From Candidatus Atribacteria bacterium (GTDB lineage Bacteria; Atribacterota; Atribacteria; Atribacterales; JASGLU01), in NCBI GenBank assembly GCA_030156825.1, contig JASGLU010000003.1, positions 1 through 56,624 on the forward strand: 56,624 bases of DNA, written 5' to 3'. The position numbers were made by a program, and so were the translations under genes. This document shows, piece by piece, positions 240 to 21,471 of this stretch. The notes under the pieces were generated by a model. The model ran no database searches, was not told the origin of the DNA, and worked only from the letters and a program-made list of their open reading frames with translations. The stretch's first letter is position 1, and every line of letters begins with the position of its first letter.

Positions 240-1043
240 CTACCGAATCAGGTAATTGATAGTTTGTTTTGCCGCCTCAGAAAAGTTGGGTTGCTGAATA
301 ATTTCGGCCGAGACAAAACCCTGATAGTTTATATCCTGCAAAGCCCGAAAGATAGAGGTAAAATCGGTGTGACCCCAGCCCGGCGCCCAACGGTTACTAT
401 CGGCAACATGAAAATGCCAGATGTACTTTCCGGCCCCAAATATGCTCTGGTAGAAGTCAACTTCTTCTATGTTCATATGAAAACTGTCGGCTAAAATCCC
501 CAAATTATCATCTTGTAAAGAAGAGATAAACTCCGAAGTTTCCTCTATAGTATTTAGAAAATTAATTTCGTATCTATTCAAAGGCTCGATCACCAGCTTG
601 ATTCCTTTTTCTTTGGCAAAGTGGCTGCATTCCAAAAGGCTTTCCTTAAAGTATGCCAGGGCTTCCCCTCTTTTCTCTTCTTCCAGTGGCAGGTTACCTC
701 GGATAAGCCCTATAATTACCAAACTTCTCCACTGAGAAGCAAAATCAACATGGCTTTTCAAGCGCTCTATCGTCTTTTTTCTTACACCTGCTTCCAGACT
801 GCTCAGGCTTAAGCCCTCTTCTATAAAAGCCTGGCCAGTCCCGATAGCAGGAACAGTTAACCCAGAATCATCTATCGCCGGTTTTACCTCTCCCATCTCT
901 ATCTCATTCGGGTTGCGGACCGCTAACTCTATCCCTTGATAACCCAGCTTTTTCAACTCAGAAACAATAGCGGTAAAAGACTCGCCAAAGGCAATGGCTC
1001 CAAATTTTGTTTTCTGTAAAGAAACGGCAAAGCTCAGTTTCAT
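240..1043 (-). CDS. iolO: 5-keto-L-gluconate epimerase (xylose-isomerase-like TIM barrel)
   Basis: AIGTGQA, LVIIGLIRG, IEPLNRYE, DSFHMNIEE, HFHVADSNRWAPG motifs match my recollection of T. maritima IolO; iol context. Confidence 0.85.
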   Translation of the reverse strand: MKLSFAVSLQKTKFGAIAFGESFTAIVSELKKLGYQGIELAVRNPNEIEMGEVKPAIDDSGLTVPAIGTGQAFIEEGLSLSSLEAGVRKKTIERLKSHVDFASQWRSLVIIGLIRGNLPLEEEKRGEALAYFKESLLECSHFAKEKGIKLVIEPLNRYEINFLNTIEETSEFISSLQDDNLGILADSFHMNIEEVDFYQSIFGAGKYIWHFHVADSNRWAPGWGHTDFTSIFRALQDINYQGFVSAEIIQQPNFSEAAKQTINYLIR

Positions 1044-1055: not shown

Positions 1056-2090
1056 TTATATTTTTGTTTTATCAATTCGGGCACAACTTTTTCGAATGAC
1101 CAGTTTGGGCGGGAAAACTATTTGCTGCCGAATGTCTCTCTTGTCCGGGTTCAAAATCTTATCCATAATAATTCTTCCGCTTAAAGCCCCCACTTCGGCA
1201 ATAGATTGAGAAATAGTGGTAAGCTGAATTAACCCCAATGAACTAAGAGGAATATCATCAAACCCGATAACCGAGAGCTCTTCTGGCACTTTAACTCCTT
1301 GTTCATTGCAAGCTTCAAACACCCCAATAGCCATAGCATCGTTAGCGGAAAAAACAGCAGTAGGCCGGTATTCTCCCGCTCGGAGCATTCTCATTCCTTC
1401 CTGGTAGCCGTTTTCCATCCTGAATTCGCCACAATAGATGTACTCCTCCTTTGCTTCTATCCCTGCTTCCGCTAAGGCTTTTTTATAACCTTCCAGACGC
1501 TCTAAGTTAGAAGAGGTAGGCCAATGACCTCCCAGGTATGCAATCTTAGTATGGCCTAAAGAAAGAAGATACTTAGTAGCCAAATATCCTCCCAATACAC
1601 TATCCACTATTACATAATCATATTGTTCCCGGTTTTCTGGTAGACGCGAGACAAAAACCATAGGAGTCTGATTTTGAGCCAAGCTCTGAATTGCCTGATC
1701 GTTCATCCGAGTGGCCCCCAGAATTATGCCGTCTACCTTTTTCCCCATAAGCGACCTGACATATAGCTCTTCCTCTTCTTCTCTTCCATTGGTGTTGCAA
1801 AGAAAAATATGGTATTGGTAACTCCGACATACCTCCTCAATGTTTCTCACCATCACTGCATAAAAGGGATTAGTGATATCGGAGATTACCACCCCCACTA
1901 TTCCGGTTCTTCGAGTAGTGAGACTCTGGGCTAACGGATTGGGGTGGTAATTTCTCTGTTGAATCACTTTTAATACTCTTTCCCTGGTTCTCTTGGCCAC
2001 CTTTTCCGGATTATTTAACACTCGAGAAACAGTGGCTTTCGAAACCCCAGCCTCTCGCGCTATATCGTTTATAGTAATTCCTTTATCCAT
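1056..2090 (-). CDS. LacI-family transcriptional repressor (probable inositol regulon repressor)
   Basis: N-terminal TINDIAREAGVSKATVSRVLN HTH plus sugar-binding domain. Confidence 0.93.
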   Translation of the reverse strand: MDKGITINDIAREAGVSKATVSRVLNNPEKVAKRTRERVLKVIQQRNYHPNPLAQSLTTRRTGIVGVVISDITNPFYAVMVRNIEEVCRSYQYHIFLCNTNGREEEEELYVRSLMGKKVDGIILGATRMNDQAIQSLAQNQTPMVFVSRLPENREQYDYVIVDSVLGGYLATKYLLSLGHTKIAYLGGHWPTSSNLERLEGYKKALAEAGIEAKEEYIYCGEFRMENGYQEGMRMLRAGEYRPTAVFSANDAMAIGVFEACNEQGVKVPEELSVIGFDDIPLSSLGLIQLTTISQSIAEVGALSGRIIMDKILNPDKRDIRQQIVFPPKLVIRKSCARIDKTKI

Positions 2091-2107
2091 TTTTCTCTCT
2101 TCCTTCT

Positions 2108-2308
2108 TGAAACCGATTTCTAATGTTTTACTAAATTATTTTATGATAAATCATCGAGTTTAGCAAGTAAAGTTGACGGAAAAAGTCTGTTTTAAGCTAA
2201 AATTATTCATTAAAATTTCCTGAAAATTTTGATCATCTCTGTCTTGACAAACCAACAAAACTAATTTATCCTAAAACCAGTTTCATAAATTGTCTAATTA
2301 AAGGAGGA
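2108..2308. promoter_or_regulatory. Bidirectional promoter module copy 1 with two LacI-type operators
   Basis: + strand TTGACA(2244)-N17-TATCCT then AAAACCAGTTTC (2273-2284); - strand TTGCTA(2166)-N17-TAAAAT then GAAACCGATTTC (2109-2120). Confidence 0.8.
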
Positions 2309-2496
2309 TAACTTATGAAATTGGTAAAATTAATCTTAATTCAAGAATAAATTTTCGTTTTATCAAAAATTTAGGAGGTGCAGCATAAAACAAGGTGTGT
2401 GGTGTTTTGCTTAGTGTTCTGATCATGTTGTTTGGTATCAGTGAAGTAGTTCTTGCAGACTTTTAACTAGAGTGAAAAACAAAAGGAGGCAACAAA

Positions 2497-3582
2497 ATGA
2501 AGATTTTAAAAGGTACCTTTACTATTTCGTTAGTGGTATTACTGTTTATGTCTTTTGCAATTACAGCGTTTGGCCAAGAACTGGAGATTATCCCCATAGG
2601 AGAAAAATTTTACTTTAAAAATACCCACTCTCATAACGATTATTACAGAGCTCGTCCACTATTAGATGCTATCGACAATGGGATGGGTAGTATTGAAGCT
2701 GACGTTTATTATATAGAACTCTCCATCACCGATGATGAGGGAAATTCCAGAGTTATGAAAGAATTGTATGTAGCACATGATTGGGATGAAATTACAGGAG
2801 ATTCCGATTATAAAACGAAAGGAACCCTCCAAAGCCTGTATTTAGATCCTCTCTATAAGATTTACCTCTCAAATGGAGGAAAGATTTATAATACACCCGA
2901 AGAAACTCTCTTGCTCCATGTAGATTTTAAAACCGATACCGATAAAACCTGGAATCTTCTCCAAAGCATTCTAAAAAACTACCCTGGGCTTTTTACAATT
3001 TACGAGCGAGACACTAAAAAAGTGACTCAAGGCCCGGTGACAGTATTCACCAATGCGGAACCCGAAAATATTCCAGATGAATGGTCAATTTTCTACTCAA
3101 CCGCAGACGGAAGATTTGGAAACATTTACGACCCCGAGGTTTGGGAATCTGATGCCTACCTCGACTTCAAGCATAGAATGCCAATCATTAGTAGCAATCT
3201 TATAGCGTATAACGATATTACTCAATTTTTCGATTTTTTAGTGTCGAAAGAAGGTATTGTAGAAGAATACGCCGACGATTATCCAAATTTATCTATAGAT
3301 ACCCTATATGACGCTTTGCAAGATGATGAGTGGGCTTTAGCTAATCGATTAATAGAAGATGGAAAAATTAAGGTTTCTGATTATCTGATTTCCCAGATGA
3401 AAAAGGCAGATCTTCTTGGTAAAGAATATGGCCACCTCATGCGTTTCTGGGCTTCTCCTGATTACCAATGGTTTTGGGATATTCAAAGCTCTTTAACAAA
3501 TGTTATGATAAACACAAATAGACCGGAAACACTAAGAAAATATCTTATGCACAAAGCTTACATTGCACAACATACCCCATAA
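2497..3582 (+). CDS. Secreted PLC-like/GDPD-like phosphodiesterase (Aim6-like HSHNDY family)
   Basis: Signal peptide ending AFG; THSHNDY..LLDA..GMGSIEADV, LYVAHD, LYLDPL, MRFWASPD motifs; RBS AAGGAGG. Confidence 0.75.
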   Translation: MKILKGTFTISLVVLLFMSFAITAFGQELEIIPIGEKFYFKNTHSHNDYYRARPLLDAIDNGMGSIEADVYYIELSITDDEGNSRVMKELYVAHDWDEITGDSDYKTKGTLQSLYLDPLYKIYLSNGGKIYNTPEETLLLHVDFKTDTDKTWNLLQSILKNYPGLFTIYERDTKKVTQGPVTVFTNAEPENIPDEWSIFYSTADGRFGNIYDPEVWESDAYLDFKHRMPIISSNLIAYNDITQFFDFLVSKEGIVEEYADDYPNLSIDTLYDALQDDEWALANRLIEDGKIKVSDYLISQMKKADLLGKEYGHLMRFWASPDYQWFWDIQSSLTNVMINTNRPETLRKYLMHKAYIAQHTP

Positions 3583-3584
3583 TT

Positions 3585-3628
3585 AGCTAAAAGAGGGACG
3601 GGAGTGGAACTCCGTCCCTCTTTTAGCT
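3585..3628. terminator. Bidirectional intrinsic terminator
   Basis: AGCTAAAAGAGGGACGG..CCGTCCCTCTTTTAGCT between convergent genes. Confidence 0.85.
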
Positions 3629-3650
3629 GGTAACCAGACCTTCATTTATA

Positions 3651-4544
3651 CTATAGATAATTTTTGTAATAACTGTTTATATAAGCTAATACATCTTCCC
3701 TAGCGCCTTTAAACGGTCCTGATGTTTCCATCTTGAGCGATGTTAAAGCAGCAGCATAATATAGAGCTTCATCAGGTTCTCTATGGATCCTTTCGGATAT
3801 ATAGGCGCCGAAACAAGTGTCACCTCTACCGGTTCTCCCTGATAAGTTTCGCGGCTTAAACGGAGCCTTATAATATTGATGACCATCGTAAACTAATACC
3901 TCGGTATTGTATGTTATCATTACTTCTTTTGGCCCCCAGGTGCAGAGCAGCTCGGCGGCTTTTTCCCTATTTTCTATGCCAGTCATTATTCTAGATTCAT
4001 TTGCATCAGTTTTCAAAAAATTAATATATGGCAAATACTCATATTTTTTATCCCAATCTTCATAAAACATATGCCCATTGTTGCTTTTGCGCAATAAACC
4101 CTGGGCATCTACCGCTACTTCCCCCTTCTTTGAAAGACTTTTTGTTAAATCATATTCAAAGTCTCCCTGAATTAATCCTGCCAGATAGTATATATTAGCG
4201 TCTACATTGGGTGGTATTTCCTCCATCCTAAACGGATCAGCTACACTTAAAACAGTAGATACTCTACTTTCCCTGTCTTCAGTCAAATACTCATTTCTAA
4301 TAGATGTAGTTTTGCCTGATTTTATATGATAAATATCCTCTTTAGGAATGTTGAATAAACTAGCTATTTTCTCGTCATCCTCAGACGATTTTGTTAATAT
4401 TCCTATTTTATTCTGCCCAGTTGCAGCTGCGCAAGCAGCATACAACACGGCCCCACCATATATCCTTTCAGTTTGATCATGATAAATGTTCTCGTCCCAA
4501 GATATGTGACCGATAATAAAGATATCGTATTTTTTAACGTTCAC
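3651..4544 (-). CDS. PfkB/ribokinase-family kinase with PPi-dependent inositol kinase signature (TM0415/IolK-like)
   Basis: DAQGLLR, FLKTD, APF..SGRTGRGDT, TSLKM motifs; GTG start at 4544 behind GGAGG (ORF track starts 4559). Confidence 0.8.
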   Translation of the reverse strand: MNVKKYDIFIIGHISWDENIYHDQTERIYGGAVLYAACAAATGQNKIGILTKSSEDDEKIASLFNIPKEDIYHIKSGKTTSIRNEYLTEDRESRVSTVLSVADPFRMEEIPPNVDANIYYLAGLIQGDFEYDLTKSLSKKGEVAVDAQGLLRKSNNGHMFYEDWDKKYEYLPYINFLKTDANESRIMTGIENREKAAELLCTWGPKEVMITYNTEVLVYDGHQYYKAPFKPRNLSGRTGRGDTCFGAYISERIHREPDEALYYAAALTSLKMETSGPFKGAREDVLAYINSYYKNYL

Positions 4545-4650
4545 TTTCTCTTCCTCCATATTACTGGTTTAAAAGCAACATGGTTTACATAGTCACTATA
4601 AGCCATCTTCATAATTTTTTTGTATTTCCAGCATCATTTTTTTCTTCTTC

Positions 4651-4844
4651 GAAACCGCTTTCTAATTGTGAAGTTATTTTACAACAATCTGTAGAGCTTA
4701 GCAAATAATCTGAGAAAAAAAGATTGTTTTAGATTAAACTTGTCTGTTAGAGCCATCTGTCAAATTCGGCACTTTGCTCTTGACAAACGATTAAAATTAC
4801 TTTACTATAAAACCAGTTTCATAAATTGTCTAATTAAAGGAGGA
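4651..4844. promoter_or_regulatory. Bidirectional promoter module copy 2 with two LacI-type operators
   Basis: + TTGACA(4780)-N17-TACTAT then AAAACCAGTTTC (4809-4820); - TTGCTA(4704)-N17-TAAAAT then GAAACCGCTTTC (4651-4662). Confidence 0.8.
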
Positions 4845-4850
4845 ATTGTT

Positions 4851-6035
4851 ATGAAAGCCGTAAGATTACATGCTCAATGGAGTCCCAAGCCAGATTTCAA
4901 ACTCGGTCCCAAAGATATAGAAGGAAAGGTTACCTGGTTAGGGAGCAAGGTGTGGCGGTATCCAGAAGTAAAATTTGAAGACATTCCTAAGCCAGAAATC
5001 AAAAGACCAACCGAGGTTGTTATCAAAGTACGAGCTTGCGGGATATGCGGTAGTGATGTCCACATGGCACAAGCTGATGAAAATGGTTACATCTTCTACC
5101 CCGGTCTCACCGGCTTTCCAGCGGTTTTAGGTCACGAATTCTCAGGTGAAGTAGTAGAAGCCGGGCCAGAGGCCATAAACCGCAGAAATAACCAACCATT
5201 TGAAATAGGAGAACCGGTAACTGCCGAAGAAATGCTCTGGTGTGGTTACTGCCGGCACTGCGCTGATGGTTTTCCCAACCACTGTGAAAACCTGCATGAG
5301 ATAGGCTTTGACGTTGATGGAGCGTTTGCCGAGTATATCGTAGTTGATGCTAAATATCTCTGGAGCTTGAAGGAATTAGAGAAAAACTATGCCGGGGAAA
5401 AGCTCTTTTTAGCCGGAAGCATAGTAGAGCCAACCTCTGTCGCTTACAATGCAGTGATTGAACGAGGAGGAGGGGTCAGGCCGGGAGATAGCGTAGTAAT
5501 TTTCGGAGGAGGACCTATTGGTTTAGGCGCCTGTGCTGTCTTGAAAAGAGGCGGTGCCCAGGTTATTCTCTCTGAACCTTCAGAAGTCAGAAGAAAGATG
5601 GCAGAAGAAATGGGAGTTGACTTTACCATCAATCCTCAAAAAGAGAATGTAGCCGAAGCTATTCTCGAGTACACCAAAGGGATGGGAGCAAAAATCTACC
5701 TGGAGGCTACCGGTGTGCCCCAAATAATCTGGAAAGATTTGGAAGAAACTATCTGGAGTGCTCGCGGTATCAATTCCACCGTGGTGGTGGTAGCCCGAGC
5801 TGATGTGGAGATCCCCTTAACCGCTGAAGTTTTTCAAGTTAAACGAGCACAGATTGTAGGCTCACAAGGACACTCAGGACACGGTAACTTCCCCCATGTT
5901 ATTTCCCTTATGGCTGCCGGCATGGATATGACCAAAGCAATCTCCAAAACCGTTACCTTGGAAGAAATACCTCAATACATAAAACGCTTACAAACTGATA
6001 AAGACTTAATAAAAGTTACCGCAATAAACCAATAG
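4851..6035 (+). CDS. iolM: scyllo-inosose 3-dehydrogenase (Zn-dependent MDR)
   Basis: MKAVRLHAQW..KLGPKDIEGKVTWLGSKVWRYP N-terminus characteristic of IolM; CGICGSD, GHEFSG, structural Zn Cys cluster; ATG 4851 behind AAGGAGG. Confidence 0.9.
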   Translation: MKAVRLHAQWSPKPDFKLGPKDIEGKVTWLGSKVWRYPEVKFEDIPKPEIKRPTEVVIKVRACGICGSDVHMAQADENGYIFYPGLTGFPAVLGHEFSGEVVEAGPEAINRRNNQPFEIGEPVTAEEMLWCGYCRHCADGFPNHCENLHEIGFDVDGAFAEYIVVDAKYLWSLKELEKNYAGEKLFLAGSIVEPTSVAYNAVIERGGGVRPGDSVVIFGGGPIGLGACAVLKRGGAQVILSEPSEVRRKMAEEMGVDFTINPQKENVAEAILEYTKGMGAKIYLEATGVPQIIWKDLEETIWSARGINSTVVVVARADVEIPLTAEVFQVKRAQIVGSQGHSGHGNFPHVISLMAAGMDMTKAISKTVTLEEIPQYIKRLQTDKDLIKVTAINQ

Positions 6036-6282
6036 GGGAAGAGAGAATAAAGAGAGGAGGTGAGGACACGTAGATAAAATTTAGTTAATAGTCTTCAAGA
6101 AAGTCTATGGGTAGGTTGCCTGAGAAAGAAAATTATCTCAAAGAAATTAAAAAGAGGTTGAAAATAAATTGAAGCAGTTTTTGAAAGAAGGGAAGGAAAA
6201 CTATTTATCCCAAGGCAACAGGTGGTAAGAGTGACGAAAATAGCTTTGTTAAGAACAATAATTTGGTTTATGGGAGGATAAA

Positions 6283-7299
6283 ATGATTAGTTTAGCAAAA
6301 AAAACGTTTTTGCTGTTTACCGTGGTGTTAGTGTTGATATCACTTTTTATGGCAGCAAGTGTTTATGCGTCCGAATCTCTAATTGTATATAGTCCACTTC
6401 ACGAAGAAGAAATCGCTCGCATTCTTGATAAGTTTTCTCAAGAAACTGGAATTAAGACAGAATTTATCCGTTTAAGTGCAGGAGCTGTTGCCGCAAGACT
6501 AATAGCAGAGAAAGACCGTCCAATGGCAGATGTTTTTTTTGGTGGTTCTGCAGAGAGCCATGAATCGTTAATAGGCGAAGGGATACTTAGGCCCTACCAA
6601 TCTCCTGTTCTTCAGGATATAGATCCTAGTTTCTATCACCCTGAATACTACTGGAGTGGTTTCTATGTTGGTGCCATTGGTTTTGCAATTAATAATAATA
6701 GATTTAAACAAAAATACCCTGATAAAGAATATCCAGCTACATGGGAAGATCTTTTAGACCCCAATTATAAAGGAGAAATCTCGATGGCTTCACCAGCTGC
6801 TTCAGGTACCGCCTACACTATCGTAGCAACTCAGTTTTTCCGCCTGGGTGAAGAAAAAGCTTGGGAATATTTAGAAGAACTCGACAAAAACATTGCTTTT
6901 TATACCTCTGCGGGAGCGGCTCCGGCACAACATGCTGCTATAGGAGAATGTATAATTGGCATTGCTTTTGGGCACGATGTTATGAAGCTTATACAAAGCG
7001 GTTACGACCTCAACCTTGTCTATCCTAAAGATACTGGTTGGGAAGTTGGCGCTGTTTCGATTGTAAAAGATGGACCCAATCCAGAAGCGGCGGAAAAGTT
7101 TGTTGATTGGATATTGAGTGTAGATGGTCAACAACTCCATTCAGACATAAGCCTACGCGTAGCAACACACCCAGAAGTCGTATTACCGGAAGGATCAACA
7201 CCTATATCTGATTTACAGCTCGTAGATTATGACTATGGATGGGCTGGCCAGAATAGAGAACGCATTGTTGAAGAGTGGAACAATCGTTTCCTTGATTAA
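6283..7299 (+). CDS. ABC transporter substrate-binding protein, AfuA/FbpA-like (sugar-phosphate/Fe3+ class)
   Basis: Signal peptide; RLSAG..ARLIAEK, DVFFGG, ASPAASGTAY, IAFGHD motifs. Confidence 0.85.
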   Translation: MISLAKKTFLLFTVVLVLISLFMAASVYASESLIVYSPLHEEEIARILDKFSQETGIKTEFIRLSAGAVAARLIAEKDRPMADVFFGGSAESHESLIGEGILRPYQSPVLQDIDPSFYHPEYYWSGFYVGAIGFAINNNRFKQKYPDKEYPATWEDLLDPNYKGEISMASPAASGTAYTIVATQFFRLGEEKAWEYLEELDKNIAFYTSAGAAPAQHAAIGECIIGIAFGHDVMKLIQSGYDLNLVYPKDTGWEVGAVSIVKDGPNPEAAEKFVDWILSVDGQQLHSDISLRVATHPEVVLPEGSTPISDLQLVDYDYGWAGQNRERIVEEWNNRFLD

Positions 7300-7377
7300 A
7301 AGACCTGATTCAGGGGAGGGTTTCTCCTCCCCCCCCTTTGTTACATAAGATAAAACCAAATAACGGAGGCGAACATA

Positions 7378-9045
7378 ATGTCGTTTGAGTTACAATACGA
7401 AGAAGGAACACAGCGTCCTTCGCGATTCAGCCTTAGAAAATTTTTGCAAGATCCTGCTTTTTTTTTCGCTATTGCGGTTATTGGCATATTATTATTCTTA
7501 CTAATTGTTTACCCTCTCCTAAGCGTAGTAACTTATCCAACTTTAGAAACCTGGAGGAAGTTTCTTACACAAGCACGTTATATAAAGGTTCTTGGGAATA
7601 GCGTTCTTCTTGCAATTTTAACAACCTTTAGTTCAACACTTGTTGGATTTTGTTTCGCCTATGCCTTAACTAGAGAAGATTTTCCTTTCAAAGGCTTTTT
7701 TAGAACAATAAGCATTCTTCCGCTAATATCTCCACCTTTTGTTACGGGATTAGCTTTAATTTTACTTTTTGGACGCCAAGGGTTAATCACTCACGCTTTA
7801 TTAGGTTTAGATGTTTCTGTTTATGGTCTATTTGGATTATGGTTTGCTCAAACCATAGCATACTACCCGGTCGCAGCCTTAACGCTTTCGGGAGTGTTAA
7901 AAAGCATAAACCCAACTTTGGAATATGCGGCAAGAGACTTAGGACAAAGTGAATGGGGAATATTTAAAACCATTACCCTGCCATTAATTACTCCCGGAAT
8001 AGCCAGCGCAGCTCTCTTGGTATCCATGTACGCCTTGAGTGATTTTGGTAACCCAATGGTTATCGGAGGGCCTTTCAGGGTTTTGGCAACAGAAGCTTAT
8101 ATGCAGGTTACCGGAATGTATAATCTACCAATGGCTGCTGTAGTCAGCTTTTTTCTTTTAATTCCTAGCCTGTGTGTTTTTCTTCTACAAAGATACTGGG
8201 TCGGTCGCAAACAATATGAAACAGTGACTGGCAAAGGAGGCACACTCGAACCTCCCCCTACTCCAGCGATTGTAAAATATAGCTTATTAATTATTCTTCT
8301 TATTGTATCATTGTTAACTCTTGCAATTTTCGCAGTGGTTGTTTACGGAGCTTTCACCAAGACATGGGGAGTTGATTGGAGTTTTACACTTGCCAATTTT
8401 AGTTATACATTACTATCAAAAACAAGAGATATTTGGAACTCACTTTCTTTCGCGCTTTTAGCCGCGTTAGGAACCGCACTATTCGCCACTTTTGCCTCTT
8501 ACATAATTTATCGTAAGAGATTTTTTGGTAGAAAAGTGCTTGATTTAATTGCCGTATTACCAGGCGCTCTACCTGGCACTATGGTTGGTATTGCCTACAT
8601 ATTGGCCTTTAATCAGAAACCTTTATTATTAACAGGCACGGCAACAATAGTAATTCTGAGCATGATTGTAAGAAATATACCATTTGGCTATAGAAACAGT
8701 TTGTCGGTATTACATCAAATAGATGAGTCAATAGAAGAAAGTGCAGCAGACTTAGGAGCAAATACTCTACGGACGTTTAAAGATATCATGCTTCCCTTAC
8801 TTAAATCAGCTTTTTCAACAACTATAGTTTATGTATTTATTAAATCGGTAAACACTGTTTCTGCAGCAATATTTCTGGTTTCACCAAAAACAAACATTGC
8901 TACAACTTCGATCTTAGGATTATCAGAACATGGCTATTGGGGACAAGCAGCAGCAATGGCAACAATTCTTATCGGAATAACACTTCTAACAACGTTAGTA
9001 TTTGAAGCAATCGGTGGAAAAGAAAAGAAATTATTCGATTTTTAA
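7378..9045 (+). CDS. ABC transporter fused double permease, AfuB/FbpB-like
   Basis: 555 aa, two EAA-like loops (LEYAARDLG, IEESAADLG), SDFGNP motif. Confidence 0.88.
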   Translation: MSFELQYEEGTQRPSRFSLRKFLQDPAFFFAIAVIGILLFLLIVYPLLSVVTYPTLETWRKFLTQARYIKVLGNSVLLAILTTFSSTLVGFCFAYALTREDFPFKGFFRTISILPLISPPFVTGLALILLFGRQGLITHALLGLDVSVYGLFGLWFAQTIAYYPVAALTLSGVLKSINPTLEYAARDLGQSEWGIFKTITLPLITPGIASAALLVSMYALSDFGNPMVIGGPFRVLATEAYMQVTGMYNLPMAAVVSFFLLIPSLCVFLLQRYWVGRKQYETVTGKGGTLEPPPTPAIVKYSLLIILLIVSLLTLAIFAVVVYGAFTKTWGVDWSFTLANFSYTLLSKTRDIWNSLSFALLAALGTALFATFASYIIYRKRFFGRKVLDLIAVLPGALPGTMVGIAYILAFNQKPLLLTGTATIVILSMIVRNIPFGYRNSLSVLHQIDESIEESAADLGANTLRTFKDIMLPLLKSAFSTTIVYVFIKSVNTVSAAIFLVSPKTNIATTSILGLSEHGYWGQAAAMATILIGITLLTTLVFEAIGGKEKKLFDF

Positions 9046-9062
9046 GGGAGGATTGAAACCAT

Positions 9063-10196
9063 ATGAACATTATTAGTAAAGAATTAAAGGAAGAAAATAT
9101 CAAGACCAAGAATATTGATGATGGAAATGATAAAGTTCATGTTGAATTGGTTGGTCTAAGCAAAAAATATGGAGAACATTATGCGGTAAAAAACCTAAAT
9201 CTCAAAATTAAAAAGGGAAGTTTTACATGTCTTTTAGGGCCTTCTGGTTGTGGAAAAACCACTACCCTGAGAATGATTTCTGGTTTTGTAAATCCTACCG
9301 AGGGAGACGTTATTATTTCTGGCGTTTCTCAAAAAGATATCCCACCTCACAAGAGAAGTACTTCAATGGTGTTTCAGGAGTATGCACTTTTCCCTCATAT
9401 GACAGTTAGGGACAATATATCTTACGGGCTCAAGCTAAAAAGAATATCTGAAATGGAGCTGAAAAAAAGGGTAGATTACATATTGGAATTTATGAATCTT
9501 ACTTCTATGGCAGATAGATTCCCTAAATTTTTATCCGGAGGTCAACAGCAGCGGGTCGCACTCGCTCGTTCTTTAGTTATGGAACCAGAGGTTCTTTTAA
9601 TGGATGAACCCTTATCAAATCTAGATGCGAAATTGAGGGTAAAACTCCGTTCTGAGTTGAAAGAAATACAACAAAGATTGGGCATAACCACTATTTATGT
9701 AACCCACGACCAGGAAGAAGCTTTATCAATTTCTGACTATATAGCTATCTTAGATGAAGGTATCCTGCAACAATTTGATTCACCATGGGAGCTTTACTTT
9801 AACCCTAAAAACAAGTTTGTAGCTGATTTTGTTGGTTTAAACAATTTCATTCCCGTTAAGGTTGAAAAAGTTGAAAAAAATTATATAGCTGTAAAAGTAG
9901 CCGATAAAACCTTAAAGGTAGAAAATAGATATTTAGTGTCAAACATAAAAGAAAATATGATTTTAAGTATTAGACCGGAAAGTATAAAACTTAACCCTCC
10001 GGAAGAAACAGACAACCTAATCAAGGGAAGGGTAAAAGTACATAACTTTTTAGGTTCTGTTGTAAGATACTGGGTAGACATCGGAGCTGGAAGTCAAGAT
10101 ATAATTGTTGATGACCATGATCCTTATAGGAAATCAATATTATCGGGGGAGGTAAATCTTAAATTTGAATCTTTCGGAATCAAGCTTTTTGATTAA
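9063..10196 (+). CDS. ABC transporter ATPase, AfuC/PotA-like
   Basis: GPSGCGKT, LSGGQQQR, MDEPLSNLD, VTHDQ; C-terminal TOBE-like region. Confidence 0.92.
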   Translation: MNIISKELKEENIKTKNIDDGNDKVHVELVGLSKKYGEHYAVKNLNLKIKKGSFTCLLGPSGCGKTTTLRMISGFVNPTEGDVIISGVSQKDIPPHKRSTSMVFQEYALFPHMTVRDNISYGLKLKRISEMELKKRVDYILEFMNLTSMADRFPKFLSGGQQQRVALARSLVMEPEVLLMDEPLSNLDAKLRVKLRSELKEIQQRLGITTIYVTHDQEEALSISDYIAILDEGILQQFDSPWELYFNPKNKFVADFVGLNNFIPVKVEKVEKNYIAVKVADKTLKVENRYLVSNIKENMILSIRPESIKLNPPEETDNLIKGRVKVHNFLGSVVRYWVDIGAGSQDIIVDDHDPYRKSILSGEVNLKFESFGIKLFD

Positions 10197-10234
10197 TAAA
10201 GATGCTCAAATTAAATATAGGAGTTAGTGGGCAA

Positions 10235-11149
10235 ATGAATAATGTATCGGTTTATGATATTGCCTTTATAGGCCATTATACAAAAGATATAATTATTTCC
10301 CCATCGGGGAAAAGAATTGTAGACGGTGGTGCGTTTAATTATGGTTCTCATGTTGCCATTCGCATGGGATTAAGGGTGGCTACGATCACAAGTCTTGCCC
10401 CGGGAGATTCTCGGGTTATAGACAAACTTGAGGATCTAGGGGTAGAAGTGTTTTTAATCCCTTCGAAGCGTTCAACCTGTTTAACCATAGAGTATCCAAC
10501 AAATAACGTTGATGAGCGAATTTTGTTAATCACAAGCTTTGCTGAGCCATTTTCTCCTTCAGATGTAAAAGATATTTCAGCAAAGGCCTTTGTTATTGGA
10601 ACTTCTGTTCGTGACGAAGTTTCACCAAAGGTTATAGAGGAAATCCGAAAAAAAGATACATTTATCTCAGCAGATGTGCAGGGTTTTATGCGGGTAAACC
10701 GTGGCGGCAGGTTAGTTTATGAAAAGTGGCCTGAAAAGGAATATATATTGGCACATATTGATGTGCTTAAAGCAGATGCCATTGAAGCTGAAGCACTTAC
10801 GGGAGAAAAAGATATAAAAATTGCTGCAAAAAAATTATCTGCACTAGGCCCCGATGAAATTTTGATTACTCATAAAAATGGAGTTTTACTATATGTTAAC
10901 AACAACTATTACGAAGCTAAATTTTATCCGGAAAAATTGGTTGGTAGAAGCGGACGGGGAGATACTTGTATCGCAGCTTATATGGCACAAAGATTAACGG
11001 TATCTCCACCCGAGGCTCTTCTTTGGGCTGCAGCAGTAACAAGTTTGAAGATGGAAAACGAAGGACCTTTCCAAAAGAGTTTATCAGAAGTAGAAGAATT
11101 GCTTAAAAATAAATATTATCCAACGGATCGGCTTAAAGAAGAAACGTGA
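10235..11149 (+). CDS. Second PfkB-family kinase with PPi-dependent inositol kinase signature
   Basis: DVQGFMR, VLKAD, AKF..VGRSGRGDT, TSLKM; likely ATG 10235 (ORF track 10202). Confidence 0.8.
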   Translation: MNNVSVYDIAFIGHYTKDIIISPSGKRIVDGGAFNYGSHVAIRMGLRVATITSLAPGDSRVIDKLEDLGVEVFLIPSKRSTCLTIEYPTNNVDERILLITSFAEPFSPSDVKDISAKAFVIGTSVRDEVSPKVIEEIRKKDTFISADVQGFMRVNRGGRLVYEKWPEKEYILAHIDVLKADAIEAEALTGEKDIKIAAKKLSALGPDEILITHKNGVLLYVNNNYYEAKFYPEKLVGRSGRGDTCIAAYMAQRLTVSPPEALLWAAAVTSLKMENEGPFQKSLSEVEELLKNKYYPTDRLKEET

Positions 11150-11184
11150 CTTTGATAGTTATAAATGGGAAAGGAGAAGCTACT

Positions 11185-12003
11185 ATGAAACTGGGGTTTA
11201 ATGGAGCTACTACTATGAAAGCCAGCTTACTGGAAGACGCTATAGCTAGCAGTAAAGCCGGTTTTGATTATTTAGAATTAAGAGACAATAAACTGGAAGA
11301 TTTGCTAAAAACTATGAACCTAGAAGAAATTAATCACTCTTTTCAAGAGCTCCACATCCAACCAATAGCTATGAATTCTCTGGAAAGAGCAACTCTGCAA
11401 GATGCTACTGGTTTTAAAGAGATAATAAAAAGGGCTGATGTCCTCTGCCGGTACTCTTCTGCCCTTCGCTGCCCCATATTAATTGCCGTACCAAGTTTCT
11501 TAGAAAATTTGTCGCCTACTAAAAAAGAAATTAAAGAAAATGCCCAGATGGTACTCAAAAAATTGGAAGAGCTATCTCGTCCCTACGAAGTAAAAATTGC
11601 TTTTGAGTTCTTGGGATTTGCCGACGCCTCAGTAAATACTCTCTCCTTCTGTAATGAAATAGTAGAAGAACTGAATAACGACCGGATAGGAATGATAATA
11701 GATACCTTCCATTTTTACTTAAGCGATGAGCCGCTATCAGTAATAGAAGAGGTGAATCCTGAAAAAATCTTTTTAGTACATATTACCGATGCCGAAGATT
11801 TACCTAAAGCTCAGCTAAAAGATGCTAATCGAGAGGTGCCAGGAAATGGGGTAATACCTCTTAAAGATATCACCCAAAAATTAAAGGACATAGGGTATAA
11901 AGGAGCGTATTCCATCGAGCTTTTTAATCCCATTTATTGGGACTGGGAACCGGAGCGAGTAACCAAGCTCTGTTATCAGAGAATGAAAGAATTGCTGGAC
12001 TAA
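11185..12003 (+). CDS. iolI: Inosose isomerase (2-keto-myo-inositol isomerase)
   Basis: MKLGFNGATT, KIAFEFLG, DTFHF, SIELF pattern resembles B. subtilis IolI; ATG 11185 behind AAGGAG. Confidence 0.75.
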   Translation: MKLGFNGATTMKASLLEDAIASSKAGFDYLELRDNKLEDLLKTMNLEEINHSFQELHIQPIAMNSLERATLQDATGFKEIIKRADVLCRYSSALRCPILIAVPSFLENLSPTKKEIKENAQMVLKKLEELSRPYEVKIAFEFLGFADASVNTLSFCNEIVEELNNDRIGMIIDTFHFYLSDEPLSVIEEVNPEKIFLVHITDAEDLPKAQLKDANREVPGNGVIPLKDITQKLKDIGYKGAYSIELFNPIYWDWEPERVTKLCYQRMKELLD

Positions 12004-12298: not shown

Positions 12299-13429
12299 CT
12301 ACAAGCTATTTATCTGCCCGATATAAGGCAGCTCGTAAACTGATTTCCAGCCTTCACTCATTGGTTCTCTTAAAAAAGGTTCCATTTCCTTGGGATCGCG
12401 CAAGGTAATTTTCTCTACTGGTGGTAATTTACCAGCCGGATAGGCTTCCAAAATTTCGTCATGTACTAAAGTTAAGTATTTTAAAATAGCGGCAACCGGA
12501 CGCTTACCTTTTTGCGCGGTGGCTCGAGTAGGATGTCCCACTACTCCTTCCGGAACCGCTGCTCGTTCAATTGCAGCGTGACCCTCTCCCTGCTGCCACA
12601 TCTGTGGACGGCGGTAAGGATCAACCGAGGTATCAAAGTGGCCTCCAGGCAGCAAAGGTTCGCCTTCAGCGTCAACCGCGTACTTCATATTCAGCATCTC
12701 CGGGAATAAGAGAAGAGAAACCGACGCTTCTGACTCATCAGCGTGGACAAAATCGGTAGTCAGGCTATCTTCCCGGTCAATGGGAGTAAAGAATTCCCTT
12801 ACCGCCCGATGCCAGTCAAGCACCCTTATAATTGCCGGCAATTGATAACGTTTGAAAAACTCTTGCAGACCCGATTCCAACATCCACAGTTGCCCATGGT
12901 TATTAATCCAAATTTGCTTTCGGAAACCATCATTCCAAAGACCCAACATAACGTTGATTACCGTTTCTCGAACCACGTCTTCAGGCATAATAATAGTCCC
13001 GGCCATTCCAAAGTGATGATAGGGATGCCCGCCGTAGTTGAGAGGAGGTAAAGCCAAGTTGACCGGCGCTCCCCTTTTTGCAGTATAGCGCCGAACTCCT
13101 TCGCAAATCTGGGTTACCATAAAGGTGTCTAAACCACTGTTGGCATAATCACCATGGCATTCAGTACAGCCAACTGGAACAAAAACAATATCGTTTTTCC
13201 GGCGATTTTCAATAACATGCCGACGGGGGGTATTCTGGATATAGCTACCCGCTTTCCCCAGCTCCGAAGGTGAAGGAATCTCATATTCCTGGAGAATCTC
13301 TTCAATCTTGCTCATCGGAGCATCAAATATTTCCTTTTTTAACCGGCCTACTTGGGTGTTCTCAAATACTATTTGAGGATAATCTGTAGTAAGCCAACGG
13401 TCATCTTTTTTATTAACCATCTTATTCAT
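12299..13429 (-). CDS. iolN: 3-dehydro-scyllo-inosose hydrolase (creatininase family)
   Basis: PVGCTECHG, HPYHHFGMAGT, WNDGFRKQIWINNHGQ, HADESE, PEGVVG, YPAGKLPP motifs shared with IolN. Confidence 0.85.
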   Translation of the reverse strand: MNKMVNKKDDRWLTTDYPQIVFENTQVGRLKKEIFDAPMSKIEEILQEYEIPSPSELGKAGSYIQNTPRRHVIENRRKNDIVFVPVGCTECHGDYANSGLDTFMVTQICEGVRRYTAKRGAPVNLALPPLNYGGHPYHHFGMAGTIIMPEDVVRETVINVMLGLWNDGFRKQIWINNHGQLWMLESGLQEFFKRYQLPAIIRVLDWHRAVREFFTPIDREDSLTTDFVHADESEASVSLLLFPEMLNMKYAVDAEGEPLLPGGHFDTSVDPYRRPQMWQQGEGHAAIERAAVPEGVVGHPTRATAQKGKRPVAAILKYLTLVHDEILEAYPAGKLPPVEKITLRDPKEMEPFLREPMSEGWKSVYELPYIGQINSL

Positions 13430-13462: not shown

Positions 13463-14485
13463 TCAATTTATTTGTAATTTTACAAAACTTCCTTTACTCA
13501 GTGACTCTTTGGCCGCATACCCCATCTCAACCGCAATTTTACCGTCTCGTCCCCCTACTGAGGGTTTCCGATTCTCCAAGATACAATTGATAAATTCTTC
13601 CATTTCCGCTAAATATGCTTCTTTGTACCTTTCAACGAAGAAAAAGAGGGGTTTATCGGTTTTAATATCTTCCGCACCTTTAACGGTTACTTCGGTTTGC
13701 CTCGGATTGCCTACCATTACACAACCCTCCGAGCCAAAAACTTCTATCCGCTGGTCATAGCCATACACTGCCTTTCGGCTATTGTCGATCGTCCCCCAAG
13801 CACCTTCTTCGTATTTTAAAGTGACTATTGCTGTGTCAATATCTCCTGCTTCTCCAATTGTCGGGTCCACCAAACAACTGCCCACCGCCATCAGCTCCAC
13901 CACTTCTTGATCTAACAGATAGCGAGCCATATCAAAATCATGGATGGTCATATCTAAAAATATTCCCCCGGAAACTTTAACATAACCGATAGGAGGCGGT
14001 TCCGGGTCTCGACTGGTTATACGCACCAAATGAGGTGTGCCAATTGTCCCCTTCCTAACCAGATCCTTCGCTTTTTTAAAGCTGGGGTCAAACCGACGAT
14101 TGAACCCTACCTGTAATTTTACCCCGGCTTTTTCAACCGCAGCCAAAGCTTGGTAAATTTTATCAAGCTCTAAAGCAATGGGTTTTTCACAAAAGATATG
14201 TTTGCCACTTTGTGCGGCCTCAGAGATTATCTGGGCGTGGGTATCAGTAGAAGAACAGATTACTACCGCATCAATTTCCTCATTTTCCAGCAAGGCTCGA
14301 TAATCTTTCTCGACCACCGGAATCTCTAACTGAGAAGCCACTTCATGGGCACTTTTTTCCAAGATATCTGACACGCCTAACACTTTTGCCCCCGAAATTT
14401 GATACTTTAAATTTCGGGCATGCAGTCGCCCAATCCTGCCAGTACCAATTATACCCAGGTTAACCGTCTCCACTCTTTCAATCAC
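13463..14485 (-). CDS. iolG: myo-inositol 2-dehydrogenase (Gfo/Idh/MocA)
   Basis: GTGRIG, FCEKP, VGFNRRFD, ITSRDP, GGIFLDMTIHDFD, YGYDQRIE. Confidence 0.9.
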   Translation of the reverse strand: MIERVETVNLGIIGTGRIGRLHARNLKYQISGAKVLGVSDILEKSAHEVASQLEIPVVEKDYRALLENEEIDAVVICSSTDTHAQIISEAAQSGKHIFCEKPIALELDKIYQALAAVEKAGVKLQVGFNRRFDPSFKKAKDLVRKGTIGTPHLVRITSRDPEPPPIGYVKVSGGIFLDMTIHDFDMARYLLDQEVVELMAVGSCLVDPTIGEAGDIDTAIVTLKYEEGAWGTIDNSRKAVYGYDQRIEVFGSEGCVMVGNPRQTEVTVKGAEDIKTDKPLFFFVERYKEAYLAEMEEFINCILENRKPSVGGRDGKIAVEMGYAAKESLSKGSFVKLQIN

Positions 14486-14620: not shown

Positions 14621-14825
14621 AAAACCGGTTTCAGAGTAAATTAGTTTTATCCTTTTGTCAAGAGCAAATTATGAATACTATTAGAAAAATTTTAATTCAA
14701 TTCACATTATAAATCGCAGAAATTAACCCTTATCAGGTCGTTTTCTAAGATTTTTACTTTTAGAAAAAGATAATAGAGCTACTTGTCAAACCTTATAAAC
14801 TATTCTATAATTAGAAAGCGGTTTC
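14621..14825. promoter_or_regulatory. Bidirectional promoter module copy 3 (inverted) with two LacI-type operators
   Basis: - TTGACA(14661)-N17-TACTCT then AAAACCGGTTTC (14621-14632); + TTGTCA(14783)-N17-TATAAT then GAAAGCGGTTTC (14814-14825). Confidence 0.8.
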
Positions 14826-15120: not shown

Positions 15121-16116
15121 ATGAAAGCTGGAAAAAAATTGCTTTTAGTTTTAACCGTAGTTTTACTATCCACTCTTCTTCTGGGAGTTGGTCTGAATGT
15201 TGCCTTAGCCCAAGAAGAAGAAAAAGTTAATATCTGGGTAGTAGTCCATGGAGGGATAGCCGATCCTTTTTGGAAACGAGTAGAAAAGGGAGTAATGGAT
15301 GCGGCCAGTAACCATCCCGACCTGGAAGTCACCTACACCGGCCCCTCGGTTTACAATTTCACCGAGTTTATGGCCGATATTGAAGCTGCTATTGCCAGCG
15401 AACCAGATGCTTTAGTGTGTACTTTAACCGAACCCGATGCGATGGATGAAGTATTACGGACCGCCATTGCCGATGGATTGCCAGTAGTGGCCATCAATGC
15501 TCCTGACCTGCGAGAGCCGCCAGAAAGCCGGATACCGGTTCTAACCTATGTGGGAGAAGACTCTTATTACATAGGAGTAGCAGCCGCTGAAGAAACCTTA
15601 AAGCGGTTCACCCCTAAGCGAGCAGTATTTGCCAACCACCATCCAGGAGCCAAAAATATCGAAATGAGAAGCCGAGGGTTCATTGAAACTATGGAGAAAA
15701 ACGGTGTTCCGGCCGAATCACTCGATATTACAGCCGATGCCGTTCAGGGAGCTGAAGTTACCCTGGCTTATCTCACTGCCAATCCTGATACCGAGGTTAT
15801 TTTCAGCACCAATACTCTCCGAACGGAAGCCATTGTAACCCGACTTTTAGATGAGGGAATAGATGTAGGAAATGAAGTAAAAATTGCCTCCATGGATATT
15901 TCTGACAAAGTGCTCGAGTATATCCAGGAAGGAAAAGTGATGTTTACCCTTGACCAACAACAATACTTGCAGGGTTATTTAGGAGTGGAATTTGCTTATC
16001 TCAATGCTAAATATGGGTTCACTCCTCCTCCAGCACCAGTTTCTACCGGACCAGCGGTTATCACCGCCGAGGATATCCCCAACTTACTGGAAGGGGTAGA
16101 AAAAGGTTATCGGTAA
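15121..16116 (+). CDS. Sugar ABC substrate-binding protein (RbsB fold), probable inositol-binding
   Basis: Signal peptide; VVHGGIADPFW, DQQQYLQGY typical of inositol-binding proteins; divergent from iolG. Confidence 0.85.
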   Translation: MKAGKKLLLVLTVVLLSTLLLGVGLNVALAQEEEKVNIWVVVHGGIADPFWKRVEKGVMDAASNHPDLEVTYTGPSVYNFTEFMADIEAAIASEPDALVCTLTEPDAMDEVLRTAIADGLPVVAINAPDLREPPESRIPVLTYVGEDSYYIGVAAAEETLKRFTPKRAVFANHHPGAKNIEMRSRGFIETMEKNGVPAESLDITADAVQGAEVTLAYLTANPDTEVIFSTNTLRTEAIVTRLLDEGIDVGNEVKIASMDISDKVLEYIQEGKVMFTLDQQQYLQGYLGVEFAYLNAKYGFTPPPAPVSTGPAVITAEDIPNLLEGVEKGYR

Positions 16117-16124
16117 GAATCCTA

Positions 16125-16153
16125 AGTGGCGGGGTAGATAACACCCCGCCACT
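16125..16153 (+). terminator. Stem-loop after binding-protein gene (partial terminator or 3' stabiliser)
   Basis: AGTGGCGGGGT-N7-ACCCCGCCACT, no U-tract. Confidence 0.55.
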
Positions 16154-16174
16154 CTAACTTAGGAGGTAAATTCA

Positions 16175-17194: not shown

Positions 17195-17206
17195 GGAGGT
17201 GGAAAG

Positions 17207-17971
17207 ATGAATCAAAAACAAGCGTTGGTAAAAATGGAAAACATTCAAAAGAGATTTGGCAAAGTCAGGGCCCTAAAAGGAGTGGATTTTGAGGTTTACG
17301 AGCAGGAAGTAGTGGGCCTCTTGGGAGATAACGGAGCGGGGAAATCGACTTTAATTAAGATTCTCTCTGGTGTTTATCGGCCCGATAAGGGAAACATATA
17401 TATTCAGGGTAAAAAAGTGGAAATCAATTCTCCCGAAGAAGCTCGGGAGCTGGGGATTGAAACTGTCCACCAAGACCTCTCCTTGATAGAGAAAATGAGT
17501 GTGGCTCGCAACTTCTTTTTGGGTAAAGAGCCCACCAAAAAAATAGGCACTCTGGAAGTTCTGGATTTAAGAAAAATGAACCGTGAGTGTATGAGCGGGC
17601 TCAAACAGGTAGGAATCGAGCTTCGTTCTCCCACTGAATTTGTTTCCACTCTCTCTGGTGGCCAAAGACAGGCCATTGCTATTGGCAGAGCAGTTTACTT
17701 TGGAGCTCAAATTCTTATTCTGGATGAACCTTTGCGTAACCTCTCTATCCGGGAGCAGCGAACCATATTAAATCATATTCAGGAGGCCCGAAAACAAGGG
17801 TCCTCAGTCATTTTTATTACTCACAACGTTCACCACGTATGCCCGGTGGCTGACCGGATAGTGCTGTTAGAAAACGGAGAAAAACTGGGGGAGGTGAAAG
17901 CGGGAGAACTAACTCCAGAAGAGATTGCCGAGTGCATTGCTAACGGCCAAATGATAGAAAAAGCTAAGTAG
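17207..17971 (+). CDS. Sugar ABC ATPase (single domain)
   Basis: GDNGAGKS, LSGGQRQ, LDEP, ITHN. Confidence 0.92.
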   Translation: MNQKQALVKMENIQKRFGKVRALKGVDFEVYEQEVVGLLGDNGAGKSTLIKILSGVYRPDKGNIYIQGKKVEINSPEEARELGIETVHQDLSLIEKMSVARNFFLGKEPTKKIGTLEVLDLRKMNRECMSGLKQVGIELRSPTEFVSTLSGGQRQAIAIGRAVYFGAQILILDEPLRNLSIREQRTILNHIQEARKQGSSVIFITHNVHHVCPVADRIVLLENGEKLGEVKAGELTPEEIAECIANGQMIEKAK

Positions 17972-21469: not shown

Positions 21470-21471
21470 AC

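Follow-up and report, generated by a model that had tools for sequence, protein, structure and literature searches.

An inositol locus of Thermotoga type in an Atribacterota genome, with a candidate branch for phosphate-linked inositol

We analyzed contig JASGLU010000003.1 of Candidatus Atribacteria bacterium (GCA_030156825.1), a stretch of 56,624 nt referred to here as the window, and in particular an inositol (iol) locus at positions 2497-12003, where open reading frame (ORF) calls and family scans place seven products behind LacI-type operator sites. Interleaved with inositol catabolic genes are a predicted exported phosphodiesterase related to phospholipase C (PLC), an AfuA-class ATP-binding cassette (ABC) importer, and two kinases bearing a pyrophosphate (PPi) signature, denoted KinA and KinB. 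A preliminary description of this DNA had read these genes as a system for scavenging inositol phosphodiesters. All the genes it claimed were recovered in place by the ORF calls and family scans, and its family assignments hold: the PLC-like phosphodiesterase by fold and transitive homology, the importer as AfuA-class, and the PPi-type kinases by signature residues. The genome (1.98 Mb, 98 contigs, estimated completeness 92.85%) has as its nearest public records Candidatus Sordicultor aquaticus and 'Atribacteria bacterium UBA3950', both Atribacterota of the family Caldatribacteriaceae, whose phosphodiesterase genes are 98% and 92% identical to that of the window.

Four inositol enzymes score above their NCBIfam equivalog cut-offs: IolO, 5-keto-L-gluconate epimerase (240-1043, minus strand; NF041099, 337 bits, cut-off 300); IolM, scyllo-inosose 3-dehydrogenase (4851-6035, plus strand; NF041097, 510 bits, cut-off 450); IolN (12299-13429, minus strand; NF041098, 315 bits, cut-off 245); and IolG (13463-14485, minus strand; TIGR04380, 467 bits, cut-off 355). 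A Thermotoga-type inositol pathway is therefore assigned to this Atribacterota genome. ATG 4851 is a likelier start for IolM than TTG 4740; the NF041097 match begins at residue 38 of the 4740 ORF. An IolI-like inosose isomerase with a TIM barrel (11146-12003, plus strand) matches B. subtilis IolI (1i60, E 2.6e-47). The separate inositol-type ABC transporter noted in the preliminary description is present at 15121-17971 (plus strand) and is RbsB-type (Peripla_BP_4; rhizopine substrate-binding protein model, 191 bits, below the cut-off of 420); it is a candidate importer of free inositol, and transporters of this type also lie within the iol operons of the Thermotogota loci that we fetched. Lower-pathway genes follow at 18258-22767 (plus strand), encoding UxaE (PF16257, 467 bits), 6-phosphogluconate dehydrogenase (NF006765, 605 bits, cut-off 413), and a LarA-like putative hexonate epimerase (NF052594, 195 bits, below the cut-off of 500). 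This set suggests a putative route from hexuronate or inositol through mannonate, gluconate and 6-phosphogluconate to ribulose 5-phosphate. The same three genes recur, with SDR and UxaC genes, at another Atribacterota locus (L091:12199-19320; loci fetched for comparison carry L numbers).

The likely regulator of the locus is a LacI-family repressor at 1056-2090 (minus strand; Pfam LacI and Peripla_BP_3), whose gene is kept beside the phosphodiesterase gene in relatives (L004, L005, L126-L129). We count 8 places with the half-palindromic motif RAAASCRNTTTC (10 strand matches) where 0.63 would be expected, a statistic inflated by the derivation of the pattern from the same sites. Seven of these places are intergenic in the locus (2109, 2273, 4651, 4809, 12097, 14621 and 14814) and one lies inside uxaE. 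Operator-like sites are thus found between the LacI and phosphodiesterase genes (GAAACCGATTTC, 2109-2120), in the divergent region between KinA and IolM (the palindromic GAAACCGCTTTC, 4651-4662), and twice in the divergent region between IolG and the RbsB-type transporter (14621-14632, 14814-14825). The iolM gene is preceded by a promoter (TTGACA-17-TACTAT), an operator at 4809-4820, and a ribosome binding site (RBS) ahead of ATG 4851 (4778-4868, plus strand). A second copy of this segment, a 91-nt direct repeat at 2242-2332 (plus strand) that is 82% identical to 4778-4868, stands upstream of the phosphodiesterase gene, with a promoter TTGACA-17-TATCCT at 2244-2272, an operator at 2273-2284, the RBS and the first codons, ending in an 11-codon remnant ORF. 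Shared by both copies are the −35 element, the 17-nt spacer, the −10 element, an identical 37-nt operator-plus-RBS segment and ATGAAA. That the phosphodiesterase gene stands behind a second copy of the iolM promoter and operator speaks for its recruitment into the regulon; it appears to have been added in one lineage under the duplicated promoter. No RAAASCRNTTTC operator site precedes the binding-protein gene at 6283; this gene is probably expressed by read-through from iolM. The co-regulation of phosphodiesterase, importer and kinases with the iol genes that had been proposed before is thus borne out, as a prediction, by operator-like sites shared among the intergenic regions of the locus.

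The IolM of the window is just 48% identical to the IolM encoded in the loci of its closest relatives (L005, L127, L128, L129). The genes flanking iolM (LacI, phosphodiesterase, KinA, binding protein, permease and ATPase) are 84-95% identical in L005 and L127-L129. It looks as if iolM was swapped for a distant copy in one lineage.

The product of the phosphodiesterase gene (2497-3582, plus strand) is 361 aa long; its N-terminus (MKILKGTFTISLVVLLFMSFAITAFG/QE) is hydrophobic, and residues 44-49 form the motif HSHNDY. Searches of the protein against Pfam, NCBIfam and PDB sequences returned no match even at E<=10; none of the curated models PF03009, PF13653, PF16670 and PF00388 was matched at that threshold, and a 58-sequence family profile gave chance matches to PDB sequences (E about 1). 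Assignment by direct sequence match was dropped after these searches came back empty, and the family placement instead uses fold and transitive homology, together with Atlas features of the protein (0.94). phmmer detected 91 relatives at E<=1e-3 among 1818 candidates. About 41 of these are close (36-91% identity) and carry no Pfam domain; the remainder are distant, carry PF13653 GDPD_2 (E 6e-19 to 1.5e-4), and are named 'PI-PLC domain' or AIM6-like. Some of the distant Bacteroidota relatives are fused to alkaline phosphatase (PF13653 + PF00245, e.g. P0087). Nine residues are invariant in 58 aligned sequences (H44, H46, N47, D48, E67, D69, H94, D143 and K145), at a spacing that resembles, along the sequence, what we take to be the H-R...E-x-D...H...E-x-K layout of glycerophosphodiester phosphodiesterases (GDPDs).

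The AlphaFold model of this protein (pLDDT 93.1) has the fold of a PLC-like phosphodiesterase TIM barrel, with a beta-hairpin (63-92) and helices (251-311) as extra elements. At E about 1e-4, Foldseek paired it with catalytic domains of PLC-beta and with GDPDs. A second structure search, independent of Foldseek, placed two Ca-dependent phosphatidylinositol-specific PLCs (PI-PLCs) on top (5fyo, Z 14.8, rmsd 3.7, 223 aligned; 3h4x, Z 14.4), followed by a lysoplasmalogen phospholipase D (Z 13.4) and many GDPDs (Z 12-13), with unrelated barrels at 9.6 or below. Downstream, a GC-rich inverted repeat (3589-3624) in the convergent region between the phosphodiesterase gene and KinA, read from the sequence and not listed by a simple terminator scan, is probably a two-way terminator. 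RNA-library contigs cover 2381-3577 (one 1196-nt contig, 14 differences) and KinA in three runs, as sequences that do not show strand or transcript ends and that may include DNA carry-over. Many transporter-gene bins have no RNA contig cover in four runs, which says nothing about their expression.

The importer consists of an AfuA-class substrate-binding protein with a signal peptide (6283-7299, plus strand; SBP_bac_6; AfuA 4r72, E 1.4e-56), a fused two-domain AfuB-like permease (7378-9045, plus strand; two BPD_transp_1 stretches; PhnU2-like, 324 bits, below cut-off), and an AfuC-like ABC ATPase with a TOBE domain (9063-10196, plus strand). A hairpin (7313-7332, plus strand) follows the binding-protein gene inside the operon. 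The best solved relatives of the binding protein are organophosphate binders: AfuA (4r72-4r75, E 1.4e-56), 8x1a, and a pyridoxal-5-phosphate binder (6wce, E 1.1e-45). Iron-binding proteins matched at E 6e-19 or weaker, and iron transport was judged unlikely from these overall sequence scores (iron binders at E >=6e-19 against 1.4e-56 for AfuA). According to the part of the AfuA study consulted (Sit et al. 2015, PMC4546632), AfuA binds hexose 6-phosphates and tells glucose 6-phosphate (G6P) from glucose 1-phosphate; it holds G6P through H205, D206 and E229 (sugar) and S37 and T150 (phosphate), and the authors use the H205/D206/E229 triad as a specificity filter for the family. T176, H231, D232 and E254 of the window protein correspond to T150, H205, D206 and E229, and these positions are invariant in all 27 aligned kinase-linked binding proteins. 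The phosphate contact S37 aligns with A66; S65 adjoins it, and 22 of 26 homologues have Ser at both positions. By its relatives and residues, the importer very probably carries an organophosphate; that this is an inositol phosphate is a tentative assignment.

KinA (3651-4559, minus strand; 1vk4, E 2.9e-45; RTGRGD) and KinB (10202-11149, plus strand; 7e4l, E 2.6e-49; 1vk4, E 3.4e-48; RSGRGD) are related to TM0415 of Thermotoga maritima. As described in the portion of Nagata et al. 2018 (PMC5931981) available to us, TM0415 depends on PPi to phosphorylate myo-inositol and yields 1D-Ins(1)P (Km PPi <15 uM, Km inositol 12 mM, kcat about 10 per second). Its donor signature comprises K171, F221, R229, R232, M266 and the motif RxGRGD, which contains R229, R232 and the catalytic D234; the bulky F221 and M266 close the ATP pocket, and inositol is contacted by D11, N78, Q141 and R145 (PMC5931981). 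Both window kinases keep the five donor residues at aligned positions, as well as D11, Q141, R145 and D234. The acceptor pocket of KinA is that of TM0415 (I76, N78, S89, L116), including all four inositol contacts. In KinB the same positions are L, I, L and S, so that three of the four contacts are kept, with Ile at 78; this pocket resembles that of chain 7e4l, which has L at 78 and 89 where 1vk4 has N and S. It is also like that of homolog No. 49 (N78L, S89L, L116S), whose products exclude Ins(1)P and for which the authors, in the same portion of PMC5931981, doubt that myo-inositol is the true acceptor. Among 51 kinases from the fetched loci and the window, the pocket split is clean: each of the 20 Thermotogota kinases has the TM0415-type pocket, as does the KinA group of Atribacterota, and the KinB group has the other one. 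What is new here is the presence of two kinases with different predicted acceptor pockets, KinA matching the maker of Ins(1)P and KinB resembling a type that does not make it.

Importer and kinase genes occur together well beyond the window. KinB relatives are found in 36 of 86 Atribacterota genomes (E<=1e-20) and binding-protein relatives in 34 (E<=1e-30); 30 genomes have both, 4 the binding protein only, 6 the kinase only, and 46 neither, counts in which related genomes are not independent. We fetched 20 Atribacterota loci, picked for long contigs and so not a random sample. In 15 of the 16 KinB-type loci among them, binding protein, permease and ATPase lie within 3 kb of the kinase; seven of the 16 also have a KinA-type kinase (48-56% identity), and L097 has a more distant one (37%). 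KinA relatives are present in 34 of 151 Thermotogota genomes, and the kinase abuts an AfuA-like importer in 10 of 20 fetched Thermotogota loci, 9 of which hold IolM/G/N. The gene order there is IolM-IolG-IolN, RbsB-type ABC transporter, kinase, AfuABC-like importer, IolO. Between the ATPase and IolO, 9 of the 10 loci carry a Cof-type HAD phosphatase (Hydrolase_3, E 5.8e-58; TIGR00099, 174 bits, cut-off 137), a placement that fits the import of a phosphorylated compound. The 20 Atribacterota loci and the window yielded no Cof-type HAD, and the genome of the window gave weak partial matches only. The importer-kinase module is conserved across two phyla, and the link is strong and old.

The phosphodiesterase is less tightly linked to the kinases. 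We collected 27 loci of its close family, 9 from genomes and 18 from metagenomes, and found a TM0415-like kinase in 7 of them, from three lineages. Five of the seven are near-identical relatives of the window (L005, L126-L129), and two more loci of this lineage stop short of the kinase position. The others are L132, where a phosphodiesterase 76% identical to that of the window stands beside a KinB-type kinase, and L135 (53% identical), with the layout CUT1 ABC transporter ... LacI, GDPD, kinase, phosphodiesterase. The preliminary description had proposed to check whether the three families co-occur; by this check importer and kinase are clearly associated (15/16 in Atribacterota, 10/20 in Thermotogota), and the phosphodiesterase less so (7/27). 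At L121, a Thermotogota locus, genes for DeoR, the kinase, a CUT1 ABC transporter and a GDPD adjoin IolD/IolE/IolG-like genes, and TM0415-like kinases recur beside importers and phosphoesterases in four different layouts. As these ties to sugar-phosphate-class importers and phosphoesterases extend over two phyla and several layouts, the physiological substrate of the kinases is likelier to be phosphate-linked than free inositol.

A further phosphodiesterase homologue (58% identical) lies in a Spirochaetales metagenome-assembled genome (L006:31-12244), between genes for DUF5054, GH38 alpha-mannosidase and a metallo-beta-lactamase fold on one side and a GDPD and CUT1 ABC transporter on the other. 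This locus may serve mannosylated phospho-inositol or glycerophospho head groups.

Taking these observations together, we tentatively favor a Thermotoga-type inositol regulon under one LacI-family repressor that has been extended by a branch for phosphate-linked inositol. The exported PLC-like phosphodiesterase would cut inositol phosphodiesters outside the cytoplasm, candidates being glycerophosphoinositol, lipid head groups and di-myo-inositol phosphate. The AfuA-class system would then import the phosphorylated cyclitol product, and the RbsB-type system free inositol. In the cytoplasm, KinA and KinB would interconvert inositol and inositol monophosphates with PPi and phosphate (Pi), KinA handling the 1D-Ins(1)P position and KinB another, and free inositol would enter IolG. 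An inositol diester is a possible substrate of the phosphodiesterase, a view we hold with some reserve. A search for an inositol-phosphate synthase in the genome (92.85% complete) was negative, which makes an external source of inositol compounds probable. Caldatribacterium saccharofermentans ferments inositol, according to the part of PMC13408713 consulted.

Several findings weigh against this proposal, in addition to the selective choice of the Atribacterota loci. Most of those loci lack IolM/G/N in the stretch fetched, L097 and L102 being the ones that have them, and the T. maritima-type loci L109-L111, L116 and L119 have the kinase with a CUT1-type transporter and no AfuA-like importer. 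The Z scores of GDPDs come within about 2 of those of PI-PLCs, too narrow a gap for the fold to settle on which side the diester is cut. In 18 of the 27 close phosphodiesterase loci, five of them <4 kb, no kinase, iol or AfuA-like gene lies nearby. Inositol phosphates are not reported as AfuA ligands in the portion of PMC4546632 consulted, in which the word 'inositol' occurs 0 times. Finally, the statement in the preliminary description that no inositol monophosphatase (IMPase) is visible is true of the window by family scans and does not extend to the genome, where two PF00459 IMPase-family genes lie on contigs C26 and C40. The argument that the kinases must run in reverse for want of a phosphatase was rejected on these grounds.

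Two further points against the proposal bear on an alternative in which the AfuABC-like system imports hexose or heptose 6-phosphates, KinB acts with PPi on the imported sugar phosphate or on a different sugar, and the placement among iol genes reflects general scavenging. The full AfuA sugar-contact triad is kept in the window protein and, with T150, in all 27 kinase-linked relatives, so the binding protein may equally well take hexose 6-phosphates. A PPi-phosphofructokinase gene (NF010675, 340 bits, cut-off 273) stands beside the importer in 11 of the 20 Atribacterota loci and would suit the import of fructose 6-phosphate. The phylum has 47 further AfuA-like places (E<=1e-55), 21 with a kinase on the contig and 26 without, many of the latter on short contigs, and the pocket of KinB is like that of homolog No. 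49, with its doubtful myo-inositol acceptor (PMC5931981, as far as consulted). We nevertheless regard this alternative as unlikely. Nine of the 10 Thermotogota importer loci are iol operons, in which the importer lies between the inositol transporter plus kinase and IolO; the window importer lies downstream of iolM, is predicted to share its operator-bearing promoter, and has IolI after it; and KinB keeps D11, Q141 and R145, which hold inositol in TM0415.

In those 11 Atribacterota loci, the PPi-phosphofructokinase is accompanied by a highly conserved 347-aa protein (L084:17927-19978, L091:9708-12181 and nine more), which Pfam and NCBIfam models do not match and whose copies share 70-97% identity from locus to locus. 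Several of the pairs adjoin the AfuA-like binding-protein gene; neither gene of the pair is in the window.

A second alternative has the kinases run forward only, spending cheap PPi on inositol for biosynthesis (inositol lipids, di-myo-inositol phosphate) or phosphorylating a later intermediate, so that the importer cargo is not their substrate. One candidate acceptor is a hexonate, giving 6-phosphogluconate for the neighboring dehydrogenase. The forward reaction is the one shown for TM0415 (kcat about 10 per second, Km PPi <15 uM), and the 12 mM Km for inositol led the authors, in the portion of PMC5931981 consulted, to suspect another acceptor among pathway intermediates. 6-Phosphogluconate dehydrogenase and the LarA-like epimerase follow UxaE in the window and are also beside KinA in L091. 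No dedicated gluconate kinase scores above cut-off in the genome: there is none of SKI type, and the best of about 20 FGGY kinases reaches 348 bits against 648 for GntK. This result is uninformative, as the FGGY kinases could themselves supply a gluconate kinase. Some Atribacteria also encode di-myo-inositol-phosphate synthesis (bioRxiv 10.1101/536078, in the part consulted), although the genome studied here yielded no inositol-phosphate synthase. Against this view, four layouts join the kinases to importers and phosphoesterases, the kinase genes share a putative repressor with catabolic genes, and in Thermotogota a forward inositol kinase beside a Cof-type phosphatase would make a futile cycle. 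We consider forward-only operation improbable.

The least probable alternative makes the 2497 protein an exported phosphodiesterase that scavenges phosphate in general, or one acting on other diesters, which the iol locus of this lineage captured by chance and which has no part in an inositol pathway. In its favor, the contexts of the close family vary (neighbors are unrelated in Trueperaceae, Thermotogae UBA12178 and several metagenome loci), distant Bacteroidota relatives are fused to alkaline phosphatase, and the gene is present in only 3 of 41 related genomes. Against it stand the second copy of the iolM promoter and operator ahead of the gene, the presence of the family next to TM0415-like kinases in two other lineages (L132, L135) and next to GDPD in L006 and L135, and the best fold matches, which are Ca-dependent PI-PLCs.

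The proposed branch for phosphate-linked inositol can be taken one step further. KinA and KinB might act in vivo as position-specific Ins-P:phosphate phosphotransferases (Ins-P + Pi to inositol + PPi) that keep the ester energy as PPi. The substrate of KinA would be 1D-Ins(1)P, the isomer set free from inositol lipids, and that of KinB another isomer, for example Ins(3)P from di-myo-inositol phosphate; the PPi would be used by a membrane H+-pyrophosphatase (H+-PPase) or by PPi-phosphofructokinase, and the Atribacterota KinB would replace the Cof-type phosphatase that stands beside the same importer in Thermotogota. A net PPi-forming direction is unlikely in our judgment, and the full phosphotransferase scheme a little more so. 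By our own estimate from textbook free energies, standard conditions put the reaction several kJ/mol uphill; a large excess of Pi over PPi, with IolG drawing off inositol, makes it feasible. A membrane H+-PPase is present in the genome. Three features are compatible with PPi formation, and each has other explanations: this gene, the PPi-phosphofructokinase gene that accompanies the importer in 11 of 20 Atribacterota loci, and the placement of KinB in the position of the Thermotogota phosphatase. In the portion of PMC5931981 consulted, the words 'reverse' and 'reversible' are applied to other enzymes only.

If true, this scheme would give TM0415 a physiological role and might add a way of conserving phosphoester energy as PPi. 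TM0415 sits in a catabolic operon with a 12 mM Km for inositol, in an organism that does not grow on inositol and whose IolR does not respond to inositol, scyllo-inositol, myo-inositol phosphate, 2-keto-myo-inositol or glucose, according to the parts consulted of PMC5931981, PMC3750489 and PMC3553997. In the literature searched, which did not extend to Rodionova et al. 2013 or the supplements of PMC5931981, we found no inositol-phosphate ABC importer tied to TM0415-like kinases.

Other features of the window concern its composition and ends. G+C content is 0.36-0.41 across 2001-12000, from the phosphodiesterase gene to IolI, against 0.43-0.47 on both flanks, possibly because the block was acquired or because membrane-protein genes differ in composition. 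The iol region is flanked by two copies, 89% identical, of a 28-nt intergenic repeat able to form a hairpin (AACTGAGGAAG...CTTCCTCAGT; 43-70 and 18203-18230), and a looser look-alike was seen by eye only near 19880. At 48460-49778 (minus strand), adjacent ORFs of 238 and 211 aa correspond to the C-terminal and N-terminal halves of SBP_bac_1, respectively; a frameshift or an assembly error has probably broken this binding-protein gene in two. Near the end of the window, 50887-55338 holds one gene with a Mu-transposase C-terminal domain along with three genes of the phage-integrase family, which probably form a mobile element or a cluster of recombinases.

Each component has known counterparts. 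The phosphodiesterase shares its predicted TIM barrel with the Ca-dependent PI-PLCs (5fyo, 3h4x) and GDPDs and is 11-13% identical to them. Both kinases share the donor signature and RxGRGD motif of TM0415 (1vk4, 5ysp), whose acceptor residues are shared by KinA only. A precedent exists in the PPi-dependent acetate kinase of Entamoeba histolytica, whose main working direction is regarded as PPi-forming (PMC5931981, as far as consulted). It differs in its unrelated fold and acyl-phosphate substrate, a phosphomonoester offering less driving force. AfuABC of Actinobacillus pleuropneumoniae and Citrobacter rodentium (4r72-4r75) is the closest solved relative of the importer, with the same layout of fused permease and ATPase; the window system has Ala in place of S37, with Ser one position earlier, and is set in an inositol regulon beside PPi-type kinases.

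At the level of whole systems, the E. coli UgpBAEC/UgpQ and GlpQ proteins scavenge glycerophosphodiesters by pairing a phosphodiesterase with an organophosphate ABC importer. L121 and L135 follow the Ugp logic, with a CUT1 ABC transporter and GDPD by a TM0415-like kinase. The window differs from Ugp/GlpQ in that its predicted diesterase is exported and of another family, its importer is AfuA-class, and PPi-type kinases are attached. The T. maritima inositol operon TM0411-TM0416 reportedly encodes IolR, IolM, IolN, IolG, TM0415 and IolO. Like that operon, the window has IolG, IolM, IolN and IolO, UxaE downstream, and a TM0415-like kinase in the cluster. Unlike that operon, with its ROK-family regulator, it has a regulator of the LacI family and two kinases with different pockets, and it adds IolI, an AfuA-class importer and a predicted exported phosphodiesterase.

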